A DNA stretch of 64,000 bases from Syntrophales bacterium (GTDB lineage: Bacteria > Desulfobacterota > Syntrophia > Syntrophales > UBA6807). The notes under the pieces were generated by a model that was given only the letters and a program-made list of their open reading frames with translations, did not search any database and was not told the origin of the DNA. Position 1 is the stretch's first letter. Each line of letters begins with the position of its first letter. Shown here one piece after another: positions 14,807-47,188 of this stretch. Location: positions 704,001 to 768,000 of the forward strand of contig JAXGPA010000001.1 of the NCBI GenBank assembly GCA_040767195.1, written 5' to 3'. Both the position numbers and the translations under genes were made by a program.

Positions 14807-16027
14807 CTAAACAAAAATACTTGCTACTTCAAAAAGGATTTTTTTGAAGTAGTTGGCGGCGCCGATTTTCAATCCAGTGTGACAACAATGCGGTATATTC
14901 CATAATAAGACATAGGGTAATATCAGGATTATCGGCAGCTTAATGCGGGGCTTTAAATAGCCCATGTCCGCCAAAGCGAAGACCAATACAGACAAGAAAA
15001 ATATGTAAATATGGATCCATCTCCCCCAATCGACGGCAAAGACATACAGTGGCAACATAAAAAGAAGGGCTATTGTCGGAAAAGCATAGACATATTTCTC
15101 CGGAATATCGACACTTTTCAAAAAGTAAAAAGGGAGAAGGGATAGGATCAACGCGAATATGTAAGTGGCTAAATAATCATTTTGAAAAAAAATATTGGCG
15201 ACCCAAAGCATTCCGTCATAGCTGTTTTGTTCTAAGCAATTTATCGCCCCATCACAAATTTTTGAATCCAACCCGTTCGATACCAAATGATTGCAAATGG
15301 CAGAGGCTTTGCCTATTCCCAAAAAAATACTTGAAAAGATCAAGGCAATGCCGGCGAGAATAACAAATGATGCCGCCAAGACATACATCGGACGCGCCTC
15401 TATTATTTTCAAATAGAAAAACAGGATCGTCACAATAATAAAAAACGGAAGGACAAACACGGCAAGTTCATGTGAAAAAAGGGCAAATGCATAAAAAGCA
15501 AGAACCAAAAAAATACCATGTTGAGGAAGACGCCCCTTCAAAAGGTACAAGACGTAGATGAGAAAAGGGATATAAACGAGGATCTCCTTTCTGAATCCCC
15601 CTTGTATGTCGTAAAAGGGAAAAAGCAAGAAGGCCGGAGAAAGAAAGATCATCAATTCCACACGGGATCGGTCCGTCCTGAAAAAAATCACCACTACGAG
15701 GAAAAAGACGAGAAACAGAAGCAGAAACTGAAGGGTAAAGACGGTCCACAACAAGTCAAATCCTGATATATGGGACAGGAAAAGAGCGACTTCACCGAAA
15801 GCCCCCCTGCGGATAAAGCCTGAAGAATAGTTGATCAACCAGTCGCCTGTCTTCCAGGTATTACCGCCATGAGAGACCTCAAAAAAATACATCAAAACAG
15901 TGCAGGCCAATCCTATCGAAACAACGGAAGCCGCGAGAATCTTTGAAGCCGTGGTCACCTGGTCTTTTTCGACGACCCCCTTCATAGTCACAGTTACTTC
16001 AGCTTCTTTATGGTCTCTTTTTCTCAT
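14807..16027 (-). CDS. AT-rich multi-pass membrane protein, possibly GT-C-like glycan modification enzyme
   Basis: about 10 hydrophobic segments; DWLINY..GFIRRG, RKE, HE and DWGRW motifs; composition differs from flanks. Confidence 0.7.
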   Translation of the reverse strand: MRKRDHKEAEVTVTMKGVVEKDQVTTASKILAASVVSIGLACTVLMYFFEVSHGGNTWKTGDWLINYSSGFIRRGAFGEVALFLSHISGFDLLWTVFTLQFLLLFLVFFLVVVIFFRTDRSRVELMIFLSPAFLLFPFYDIQGGFRKEILVYIPFLIYVLYLLKGRLPQHGIFLVLAFYAFALFSHELAVFVLPFFIIVTILFFYLKIIEARPMYVLAASFVILAGIALIFSSIFLGIGKASAICNHLVSNGLDSKICDGAINCLEQNSYDGMLWVANIFFQNDYLATYIFALILSLLPFYFLKSVDIPEKYVYAFPTIALLFMLPLYVFAVDWGRWIHIYIFFLSVLVFALADMGYLKPRIKLPIILILPYVLLWNIPHCCHTGLKIGAANYFKKILFEVASIFV

Positions 16028-16473
16028 GGTCTCTTTTAACTTTGATTTTCCTCCAGAAATCTTTTTGGTAATCCCACCGGATGAGAATCGTCACAAACGT
16101 TCCTGTTAACATCTAAACTTGGGAACCGTACTTTCATTTCATCATTTATTCAGTTGCGCTCGATATTTCAATATCAAAATACTTTAATCCTAAAACACCT
16201 ATCTTTTCTAACTTAATGATATTTTGCTGTTTATTCTTCGTCGGGTGGGTTCGATTGCCATGCTGTTCCGCCATTTTTTCCTGTAATCCAATATTTCTCA
16301 ATAGAATGCTTTAACAAAACTTTTGGATATGAGACACAGCGGTCAACTAACAGTTTAAGCTTAACCGGGCTAACGAAGGAAGCTGCGGAAAAAGGATCAG
16401 GGCGATATGTTGTACGGGATGAGGGGCTCTTTTCAGGCCAGCCAATGACGTTGAGTAATAGGGCCCCCCTGTT

Positions 16474-31735: not shown

Positions 31736-32032
31736 GCGCCTTACTCTCTCTTCAGGAAAAATTCAGGATCCGTGAACACTTTGCAAAATCTCAAATATCA
31801 GTGCAGTATCACATTTTTGTACACAAAACCCCTCGATAATTCAACTGTCATCAAGAAAAGGACCTTGCACGCCGGTCCCCCGGGAAGGACGTCGAAGCCC
31901 TCGATTTCCGGACCCAGTCCCTCATCGCCGGGTGGCGCCTTTTCGTTCAGGCCTGAGAGGGTTCCGGGAACTCTTGACAAAAAGAGTCATTATGGCTCAC
32001 ATTAGGCAAAAAAGACGAAACGGAGAAAATTA

Positions 32033-32440
32033 ATGACCGGTAAATTTCATTTCAAAGGCCCCGAAGCGGGATGGACATGGGGCGGAATCGGCAGTCTCAT
32101 CTGGCTCCCCCTTATCGCCGTCCTTTTCCTCTGCCAGGGAAAAGCGTTCGCGGGAGTAGCCACCCTGCTGATTTTCGGGTGAGGCGTTTGCGCCGTGGTC
32201 CGGTACGGACCCTGGAAATATCCCCATACGCCCCTGTGGAAAATTTACTCGGGCCTCGCGGCCTTTTACGCCCTTTCCGTCGTTGTCGTCTACAGCCTGT
32301 GGGTTTTCGGAACCGCCCACGGATACCGGGGCCTGGGGCAGATCCTTTATTTCCTCTCGATCCTCCTCATCCCTGTTTTCGTTTTCGGCAACCGGACGTG
32401 GAATGACCTGCACGGCGAAAAAAAAGAAAAGCCTGAATAG
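32033..32440 (+). CDS. small multi-pass membrane protein with in-frame TGA at 32180-32182 (selenoprotein candidate or pseudogene)
   Basis: RBS GGAG + ATG 32033; MTGKFHFKGPEAGWTWGGIGSLIWLPLIAVLFLCQGKAFAGVATLLIFG*GVCAV continues in frame into the 32195-32440 ORF. Confidence 0.7.
32193..32215 (+). promoter_or_regulatory. candidate bacterial SECIS element
   Basis: CCG-U-GGUCCG-GUA-CGGACC-C-UGG hairpin beginning at the 11th nt after the TGA; G-leading apical loop. Confidence 0.45.
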
Positions 32441-32445
32441 AGGAC

Positions 32446-33195
32446 ATGAGGAAAGCGGAAGAAACGGGGCTCGAAGGGGAACTCAAAGGGCTTCTTTACG
32501 AAAAAGGCGCCTCGGCGGCCGCCTTCGCCGACCTGGGACACCTTCCCGGCGGCCCTCCCCGGGGAATGAACCGGGCCGTTTCCCTGGCCGTCGCCCTGGA
32601 CCGGGACATTTTAGCGGGGATCCATGACGGGCCCACCAGGCCCTATTTCAGGGAATACGAACGGGTGAACGAACGGATTGACGGCCTGTGCCGCCTCGCC
32701 GCTGCACGGCTCGAAGGGGCGGGATACCGGGCCATCCCCCTTTTCCCGACGACGGAAAACTGGGACCGCGAAACCCTCGCCGCCGATTTCCCCCACAAGA
32801 CGGCAGCGACCCGGGCGGGTCTTGGCTGGATCGGAAAATCCGATCTTCTCATCACGGAGCGTTTCGGAGCGGCCATCCGGCTGGGAACGGTCCTCACCGA
32901 CGCCCCCCTGGAACCGGCGGAACCGGTGGACGTTTCCCGCTGCGGGCGCTGCCGGGCCTGTGTGGACCGCTGTCCCGCCGGCGCCATTCAAGGTCCGGAC
33001 TGGCAAAAGGGGGTGCCCCGGGAGGTTCTCTACCGGGCCGCATCGTGCGCCGAAACGGCCCGCCGTTTCTCCGACGCTCTCGCCATACCCGCGACGATCT
33101 GCGGCATCTGCATCGTGGCCTGCCCCTGGACACAGAAGTACATGAAAGGCGGGCCTCACCCCGGGGAGGCTGAAAACCCCGAAAAACCCCTTTAA
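32446..33195 (+). CDS. QueG/reductive-dehalogenase-like 4Fe-4S protein
   Basis: HKTAATRAGLGWIGK, RLGTVLTD, CGRCRACVDRCP, CGICIVACPW. Confidence 0.85.
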   Translation: MRKAEETGLEGELKGLLYEKGASAAAFADLGHLPGGPPRGMNRAVSLAVALDRDILAGIHDGPTRPYFREYERVNERIDGLCRLAAARLEGAGYRAIPLFPTTENWDRETLAADFPHKTAATRAGLGWIGKSDLLITERFGAAIRLGTVLTDAPLEPAEPVDVSRCGRCRACVDRCPAGAIQGPDWQKGVPREVLYRAASCAETARRFSDALAIPATICGICIVACPWTQKYMKGGPHPGEAENPEKPL

Positions 33196-45862: not shown

Positions 45863-46081
45863 TCATCTTTTCCGGATGACCATCCTGTACCCGTCGTCCT
45901 CCGGGCTTACGGAAACCATTTCCCAGCCCTGGCTGGAAGCCGCCCGGGAGACGTTTTCCCTGGACGTTTCGGTGTCAACGAGGACCTCCAGTTCGGTTTC
46001 CTTCCCCGCACGAATGGCGTTAAGCGCCAGGATGACCGGCTGGGGGCAGGACAGACCTCTCGCATCGACAATCTTGCTCAT
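45863..46081 (-). CDS. TusA/SirA-like sulfur/selenium carrier (YedF-like)
   Basis: VDARGLSCPQPV motif; follows YedE. Confidence 0.9.
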   Translation of the reverse strand: MSKIVDARGLSCPQPVILALNAIRAGKETELEVLVDTETSRENVSRAASSQGWEMVSVSPEDDGYRMVIRKR

Positions 46082-46093
46082 GGCGTGCCTCCC

Positions 46094-47188
46094 TTAAGAT
46101 ATTTTCCGCCGCATGGTGAAACCGATGAAAAGACAGGCGGCAAAGCCGACGATCACCGACGCGACACCGTGGGGACCCACACCGGCGGGCGAACTGGCCA
46201 GGCCGAAATTGTGGGCGACGGCCGCCCCGGTAATCATGCCCAGGACGAAGACGGCGGCATCCCCGTCCCCCTCGCCGGCCAGGAACAGCTGTCGACCCGG
46301 ACACCCCCCGGCAAGAGCAAAAGCGAGGCCCGCCAGGGCCATCCCCAGAAAATTCCAGAGTTGCATGGTGTGGGCCACCGGCTGGCCGGCAAAACCGGGA
46401 TGAAACTGCCTGAAAACGAGATTCGTTACAAAGGCCGCCGCAATGAGGGCGACAAAGCCGGATAGAAGATGGGTTTGCCGGAACAGAATGAAATCCCGAA
46501 TGGCGCCCATGGTGCAGAATCGGCTTCTCTGGGCGACAAAACCGACGACCAGGCCGATCCCCAGGGAAACAGCCAGGGACGCGTGCATCGCCCCGGGACC
46601 CTTTAGGCTGTAAAAGAGAACCCCGCTTTTCTCCTGTCCTTCCAGGGGAGGGAAAAGGACCCTGAGAGTCAGAAGGCCCACGATGATGAGGGGAAACATC
46701 CATCCCGCCGCCGTGTAGGACGCATTGTTCCGTCCCAGGCTGTATCCGCCCCGGAGAAAAAGGGTTCCCAGCCAGATCCCGCCGATGAGGCCGAGAAGGC
46801 CGAATACGGCGCTTCCGTCCCCGCCGGCAAGACGCAGGGCCGCCCGCCAGGGACAGCCGAGGAAGACCAGGGCACCGATCATGGCGAAGACGCCCAGGAC
46901 GAACCGGACCACCGGGGCCGATCCCATGCGGGGCCGGAATTCCCGGAACAGATAGGCGGCGCCGAGCGATCCCAGGACAAAACCGAAGATTTCCGGCCTC
47001 AGGTACTGGACCACGGCGGCCCGGTGAAGCCCCAGTCCGCCGGCAATGTCGCGCTCGAAACAGGCGACACAGATACCCATGTTCCCGGGATTTCCCAGTT
47101 TCTGGAGCAGGGAAGCAAGGATCCCGATCAGCACCCCGACCCCCACAATTCCCCAACGCGTGGAAAACAGATTTTTCAGACCTTCCAT
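46094..47188 (-). CDS. YedE family putative selenium/sulfur transporter
   Basis: GNPGNMGICVACFERDIAG, GCPWR, RSRFCTMG, GGCPGRQL. Confidence 0.9.
   Translation of the reverse strand: MEGLKNLFSTRWGIVGVGVLIGILASLLQKLGNPGNMGICVACFERDIAGGLGLHRAAVVQYLRPEIFGFVLGSLGAAYLFREFRPRMGSAPVVRFVLGVFAMIGALVFLGCPWRAALRLAGGDGSAVFGLLGLIGGIWLGTLFLRGGYSLGRNNASYTAAGWMFPLIIVGLLTLRVLFPPLEGQEKSGVLFYSLKGPGAMHASLAVSLGIGLVVGFVAQRSRFCTMGAIRDFILFRQTHLLSGFVALIAAAFVTNLVFRQFHPGFAGQPVAHTMQLWNFLGMALAGLAFALAGGCPGRQLFLAGEGDGDAAVFVLGMITGAAVAHNFGLASSPAGVGPHGVASVIVGFAACLFIGFTMRRKIS

Follow-up and report, generated by a model that had tools for sequence, protein, structure and literature searches.

The SelB/bSECIS selenoproteins of bacteria fall into 119 families in Table 1 of PMC13188914, and the current view, as given there and in PMC12013277, is that selenoproteins arise by a Cys to selenocysteine (Sec) swap at a catalytic site. 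PMC12013277 states that every known selenoprotein appears to have Cys homologs, and the prior for Sec at a non-Cys site is therefore low. Selenoprotein search pipelines, as described in the same two sources, may filter out candidates without Cys homologs (PMC12013277, PMC13188914). The candidate described here shares with these proteins an in-frame UGA in a conserved frame, a hairpin with GG in its loop, selA and selB, and a genome with many probable Sec genes. However, it differs from them, as far as they are described, in having no Cys homologs, a UGA in one species only and a variable hydrophobic membrane site. Neither its family nor the lipoprotein signal peptidase LspA, the second case considered below, is in the 119-family table (PMC13188914).

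Likenesses can also be found outside the selenoproteins. In Methanosarcina acetivorans Thg1, pyrrolysine (Pyl) is encoded by an in-frame stop at a non-essential position, in a single species with an existing recoding system, and in these respects it resembles our case (PMC2933860). Thg1-Pyl, as reported, uses UAG and was seen in protein, whereas here the codon is UGA and the residue would be Sec, an apparent cis hairpin was gained in each gene, and the candidate is known from genes alone (PMC2933860). The deltaproteobacterial selC* tRNA-Cys(UCA)/SelB* pair, from the same broad lineage, is described as opal decoding beyond Sec, but it would insert Cys (PMC5389517), and we found a tRNA of this kind beside a second selB-like gene in a sister species only and not in the gapped assembly of the source genome. 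Finally, in-frame stops under purifying selection are reported to be common in bacteria, which counts against a Sec reading (PMC7918605). Like the candidate's, these presumably leaky stops persist in different strains, and dN/dS downstream of them is below 1. As characterised in the available text, most are short-lived polymorphisms with fairly high dN/dS, and that text gives no SECIS analysis (PMC7918605); the candidate stop, in contrast, is fixed, has a pN/pS of ~0.2 and is followed by a derived hairpin. Our literature search, which left supplements and BSepDB aside, found no work treating selenocysteine, SECIS and lipoprotein signal peptidase together, and none of the papers listed reported the candidate family or placed Sec at a membrane site without Cys; the term 'signal peptidase' is absent from the main text of PMC13326102 and PMC12013277.

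The candidate lies in a 64,000-nucleotide stretch (the window) of the 2.39 Mb, 13-contig genome of an anaerobic-digester bacterium (G000; the sister species is G001). Its features are collected in the table. The sequence-only reading of the window had described a frame with a TGA at codon 50 that runs on as hydrophobic sequence to give a protein of 135 aa with roughly four transmembrane segments, and all of this was reproduced: the frame opens with ATG at 32033, meets the TGA at 32180-32182 and is then open to a TAG at 32438-32440, with four hydrophobic segments. Decoding of the TGA would place FG-U-GV-C inside the protein. The ribosome-binding site, which had been called good, contains GGAG but lies near the median in strength (duplex -6.6), a weaker one being present in 49% of genes. 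Promoter and terminator scans at the locus found none. A GTPase gene is divergent on the upstream side, and the gene on the downstream side, which encodes a QueG/reductive-dehalogenase-like protein scoring under both profile cut-offs, is likely co-transcribed with the candidate; the two are also coupled in the sister species. The selenium-use genes noted earlier in the window are present in part, in that yedE is confirmed over its cut-off while the yedF-like gene falls below its own.

Table. Features of the candidate locus and of lspA; positions are those of the window unless a contig is named.
Feature	Position	Strand	Remark
Shine-Dalgarno-like GGAG	32022..32025	+	Ribosome-binding site of the candidate membrane-protein gene
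Read-through ORF	32033..32440	+	Membrane protein of 135 aa with four hydrophobic segments; family unnamed
In-frame TGA, codon 50	32180..32182	+	Sister species G001 has GGC (Gly) here; all strains examined have the TGA
TGC, Cys53 of the apparent UxxC	32189..32191	+	Closest homologs Phe; Cys in 5/155
SECIS-like hairpin	32193..32215	+	Upper stem GGUCC/GGACC 32197-32211; loop GG 19 nt after UGA
GTG, gene callers' start for the 81-aa C-terminal fragment	32195..32197	+	Buried within the hairpin
QueG-like 4Fe-4S protein gene	32446..33195	+	Below TIGR00276 cut-off; 5 nt downstream of the candidate ORF
yedE and yedF/TusA-like genes	45866..47146	-	yedE over TIGR04112 cut-off; selenium-use context, unlinked to the candidate ORF
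lspA with in-frame TGA at codon 19	G000:C1:688404-688904	-	TGA at G000:C1:688850; ~15 kb before the window

The TGA is fixed. No variant at 32180-32182 was present among the matches listed, which comprised contigs from 8 runs of 7 studies (one of the 8 may be the source of the assembly, and another shares that run's study). Moreover, the TGA is kept in haplotypes that carry 9 differences in 147 nt on both flanks, the closest of them at 32171 and 32193. The protein collection has the N-terminal piece as a cluster of 10 distinct sequences, 10/10 of which end at residue 49, and the C-terminal piece as one of 25, the 15 listed being 63-81 aa long. This 49-aa cluster was the only set of shorter relatives found; no full-length protein above 68% identity was found, the top three having 68, 64 and 54%. 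Selection was estimated from 41 strain variants (run contigs plus locus L024), of which 25 are synonymous; we excluded two one-base indels that cancel each other within the final codons of one contig. Upstream of the TGA there are 9 synonymous and 6 replacement variants (pN/pS 0.22-0.26, p 0.004-0.009), and downstream 16 and 10 (pN/pS 0.20-0.24, p 7e-5 to 4e-4); no further stop codon was seen among the 41.

The sequence-only reading had kept a plain nonsense mutation or sequencing error as a real alternative. Sequencing error is rejected, as the TGA is present in independent runs, and so is a fresh nonsense mutation, as the TGA is fixed across strains with a pN/pS of ~0.2 on each side. A decaying pseudogene is unlikely for the same reasons. 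It is true that the family is patchy (30/339 genomes of the order, 20/401 sampled from the phylum), so that its loss is tolerated. Nevertheless, given purifying selection on both halves, the lack of other stops among strain variants, an RNA-library contig spanning 32033-32456 (for which DNA carry-over may account) and the same pattern in lspA, we regard pseudogene or error together as very improbable.

The protein belongs to a family without a name. No Pfam or NCBIfam profile was matched over its curated cut-off by any of 8 family members tested, the atlas neighbours are unnamed clusters, a PDB sequence search gave no match and Foldseek with the predicted model gave none at E 0.001. The best VIA match had a Z of 8.2 (VTC complex, rmsd 3.2 over 94 residues), which is in the range of ordinary helical bundles. 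The sequence-only reading had not recognised the family either. A profile search returned 182 representatives at E 0.001 or better; 148 of those listed, with 7 close homologs, made up an alignment of 155. Its conserved residues are G13, W14, G17, G20, W24, P60, W61, P114 and W123, with no conserved Cys. There is no conserved gene partner among the 57 of 92 neighbour ORFs scanned, the commonest being SAM methyltransferases (6/57). Conserved G/W/P motifs, the lack of a conserved Cys, a patchy distribution and the absence of fixed neighbours together suggest, as the most likely role, that of a small helical bundle with an accessory place in the inner membrane.

Column 50 holds A in 42 homologs, L in 38, V in 23, I in 20 and G in 15, with Cys in none. 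The closest homologs read F-A/V/I-G-G/S-V-F-Y, with Gly at 50 and Phe at 53, and codon 50 is GGC in the sister species. Among the loci fetched, no stop at position 50 was found outside the source species. The AF2 model (pLDDT 90) is all-helical, and so not thioredoxin-like, and puts residue 50 within helix 38-57; on this model the variable hydrophobic site at position 50 lies midway along a predicted membrane helix. Cys or TGA at codon 50 of homologs, as had been expected for a selenoprotein family, is therefore not what the alignment holds (0/155 Cys), and the Sec/Cys pair is a mark of SECIS selenoproteins that the candidate lacks. Likewise the UxxC that had been read as a redox motif is not conserved as UxxC or CxxC. 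Thioredoxin-type redox motifs sit at the N-terminus of a helix. We considered that a redox selenoprotein may nonetheless have arisen de novo in this species, Gly50 to Sec and Phe53 to Cys together making a working membrane UxxC. Cys53 is derived (Cys in 5/155 homologs at that column) and shows no variant among the strain matches listed, and a 4Fe-4S protein gene directly 3' would fit a redox role. However, the motif is mid-helix and so unlike thioredoxin-type motifs, the family has no conserved Cys, no UxxC was found in a second lineage among the loci fetched and the lspA UGA has no Cys nearby, and we consider such an origin improbable.

Downstream of the UGA, the hairpin CCG-U-GGUCCG[GUA]CGGACC-C-UGG begins at 32193, the 11th nt after the stop, just as it had been described. 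Its upper stem GGUCC/GGACC has no variant among the strain matches listed; in the lower stem, one haplotype has G at 32193. The folding energy is not exceptional against chance (z -0.93). A gap in synonymous variants over codons 46-69 (p 0.007 raw, 0.19 after scan correction) was not counted. The published bSECIS geometry is a loop of 3-9 nt starting G(G/U) on a stem of 4-16 bp, 16-37 nt from the UGA (PMC13188914); applied loosely and with no energy term it takes in 13/15 sites of the source genome but also 493/1,347 (37%) ordinary TGA stops. A strict rule, which asks for a stem of at least 5 pairs and for GG in the loop at 17-23 nt from the UGA, recovers 10/13 reference sites versus 42/1,348 ordinary stops, and with a limit of -6 kcal/mol 8/13 versus 20/1,348, the candidate passing at -7.0. 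An MFE-based rule recovers 11/15 sites of the source genome, 5/8 SelD genes of relatives and 102/1,347 ordinary stops. The candidate hairpin agrees with all three rules as implemented in our own scripts rather than bSECISearch, and the G001 ortholog fails both of those applied to it. These rules were fixed after the reference sites were known, the range being extended to 23 nt once lspA had been seen, and they miss 3/13 to 4/15 probable Sec sites; the chance of the lineage's SECIS geometry at an ordinary stop is 1.5-9%.

The motif GGTCCGG occurs 12 nt after the UGA in the SelD genes of 8/8 relatives and 14 nt after it in the candidate. The G001 ortholog has the same C-CGG-U without a stem; this loop is inherited from the Arg57 codon, which counts against the Sec reading. 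The stem depends on Val56 and Gly59, and Gly59, whose codon is the 3' arm and lies beside a near-invariant PW, is found in 0/155 homologs. Contrary to what conservation of a SECIS across the family would predict, the hairpin is absent from the sister species; judged from the homologs, it is derived and arose together with the UGA.

By its gene content the source genome uses selenocysteine. It has selA and selB (the latter at G000:C1:416570-418462) over profile cut-offs and, in the window, yedE. There are about 15 probable Sec genes, including 4 FdhA genes with UGA and hairpins; other UGA genes match MsrA, HesB, UXX-star, CoA-disulfide reductase, UshA-like and SelL-related profiles, several below cut-offs. 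Two UshA-like genes (G000:C11:76010-77119 and C1:524493-525647) carry a UGA and near-identical SECIS hairpins; both score below the cut-offs of the UshA-like selenoprotein profiles, and one has R-G-U instead of C-x-U. A search for the Sec machinery thus succeeded for selA and selB, while neither selD nor an intact selC turned up in this gapped assembly. Among relatives selD is over cut-off in 14/20 and tRNA-Sec present in 16/20, the sister species having both. The assembly, though rated 98.8% complete, also lacks uvrA and moeA despite carrying uvrB, uvrC and nine molybdopterin enzymes, and absence calls from it are unreliable. Since uvrA and moeA flank selC in G001, the absence of selC and selD is likely an assembly gap. 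A low-score 73-nt 'SeC' call under relaxed ARAGORN settings was not treated as a tRNA. At 16241-16279 (+) of the window there is a 39-nt remnant of a tRNA-Sec 3' end, 90% identical to G001 selC and adjoining a low-GC (41%) membrane-protein gene (14807-16027); it looks like the attachment site of an island formerly integrated in selC. In the sister species, a second UCA-anticodon tRNA, ending U-CCA, lies directly upstream of a second selB-like gene (L052:7918-8010, G001:C15).

We surveyed orthologs for interior stops in 2.26 Mb of the ~3.3 Mb G001 genome (about two thirds), giving 2,040 predicted proteins, 1,232 of them with orthologs in G000. Eight stops were flagged, 5 at gene edges or in wrong frames and 3 interior. 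The three, all TGA in G000, are in the candidate (Gly in the sister), a peroxiredoxin (Cys, the canonical case) and lspA (Leu). Genome-wide reassignment of UGA to Gly or Trp is rejected, with TGA ending 1,356/2,113 predicted genes and only these 3 interior TGAs in 1,232 orthologs. The reverse comparison, covering 1,154/2,113 G000 proteins, gave 5 flagged stops, of which two are UGAs of FdhA genes, two lie at gene edges and one is an interior TAG. The TAG (L161:13203, minus strand, G001:C50) falls at a Ser position ~30 residues short of the C-terminus in an ortholog of 209 aa, which we take to be Sua5/YwlC-like. It is probably a plain nonsense change, from which it follows that such changes do occur.

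The candidate locus was picked in the sequence-only reading for its hairpin, and lspA is therefore the sole independent test. The assembly has one copy of lspA. A strong ribosome-binding site and 18 conserved codons are followed by the UGA and, 23 nt on, by a 6-bp hairpin with a GGUC loop, which fits the SECIS rules and is absent from lspA of the sister species; the chance of an accidental hairpin of SECIS type here is 1.5-9%. All 15 lspA records of at least 97% identity begin at residue 20 or later. Residue 19 is Leu in 11 and Phe in 2 of 13 full-length relatives (70-78% identity), and no stop at this position occurs in the 149 relatives of the order listed, a further 157 matches lying beyond the listing. 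A model of moderate confidence puts residue 19 within helix 2-31. LspA is an essential enzyme of Gram-negatives, and its 14 conserved residues are reported to include Asp21 and Lys25 (S. aureus numbering) (PMC6952399); by motif, the DxxxK right after our UGA would be their equivalents. Taken together, lspA is likely an independent second instance of a non-Cys UGA with a hairpin.

An in-frame stop with both halves under selection would also fit a split gene, in which translation stops at the UGA and restarts at GTG 32195, the 49-aa and 81-aa pieces reassembling in the membrane. Gene callers annotate the candidate in just this way, and a Shine-Dalgarno-like GGGUGAGG overlaps its stop (duplex -8.4). 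Yet the start region at this GTG, within the hairpin, exceeds that of 98% of genes in stability, and on the model the split would cut through the middle of helix 38-57 and lose four residues. In lspA, restart at a GTG or ATG would lose the conserved Asp (and Lys), and at a CTG most of helix 2-31. We therefore think a split gene rather unlikely.

A somewhat better prospect, though still an unlikely one, is read-through without selenium, in which a near-cognate Trp-tRNA or a selC*-type opal tRNA for Cys would yield enough full-length protein, the hairpins being chance or mere help. Trp or Cys would suit a hydrophobic Gly/Leu/Phe site, selC and selD are unassembled in G000, UGA is leaky (6% in B. 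subtilis according to PMC7918605), and the tRNA beside the second selB-like gene of the sister species is arranged as for selC*/selB* (PMC5389517). Against this, the gapped G000 assembly yielded neither selC* nor a second selB; its tRNA-Trp looks ordinary, and a suppressor-type tRNA-Trp is rejected on that ground. General leakiness would be costly where so many genes end in TGA, and read-through of the E. coli fdhF UGA without selenium is given as negligible by western blot (PMC4513850). Moreover, both non-Cys UGAs gained hairpins of SECIS geometry.

To species-specific insertion of Sec at non-catalytic membrane positions, here through a fixed internal UGA in a continuous 135-codon frame, we give about an even chance. 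The broader form, that ordinary membrane positions without Cys ancestry, including that of the only LspA, hold Sec by way of hairpins evolved gene by gene, we put a little short of even. We hypothesise that a Gly codon in the ancestor of the species became UGA, via GGA or a Cys codon, and that Ile/Phe56 to Val and Ala59 to Gly closed a stem under the pre-existing C-CGG-U loop, which would yield a SECIS at the right distance. The resident SelB/SECIS machinery would then decode the UGA as Sec at a tolerant hydrophobic site, where the selenium would likely be non-catalytic. SECIS-bound SelB is reported to recode 30-40% of ribosomes on E. coli fdhF and to need selenium (PMC4513850). Such a share could suffice where the product is a small membrane protein or, as with LspA, a processing enzyme, and in a cell that already makes ~15 selenoproteins a worthwhile fraction of ribosomes would be rescued by SelB-bound Sec-tRNA. 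Full-length protein would still be made, and both halves would stay under selection. The same may well have happened independently in lspA, through Leu/Phe19 to UGA and a new hairpin. The predicted cost is a lower, selenium-dependent protein output. Of the selenoprotein first proposed, what stands is a fixed UGA with a SECIS of the lineage's type in a Sec-using genome; what does not is a selenoprotein family. We infer that the protein is likely a selenoprotein in one species only, outside any conserved UxxC redox family.

Read-through would account for the database annotations of both genes, the membrane protein being entered there as split and LspA as cut at its N-terminus. If the Sec reading is true, Sec can enter non-redox sites, much as pyrrolysine did in Thg1, the original paper on which reportedly has 'by neutral evolution' in its title. 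There would then be a class of Cys-less, species-specific selenoproteins that searches for Sec/Cys pairs discard by design, and these genes would show the speed at which a bacterial SECIS can arise. Moreover, an essential housekeeping enzyme, LspA, would be tied to selenium supply in a digester syntroph.
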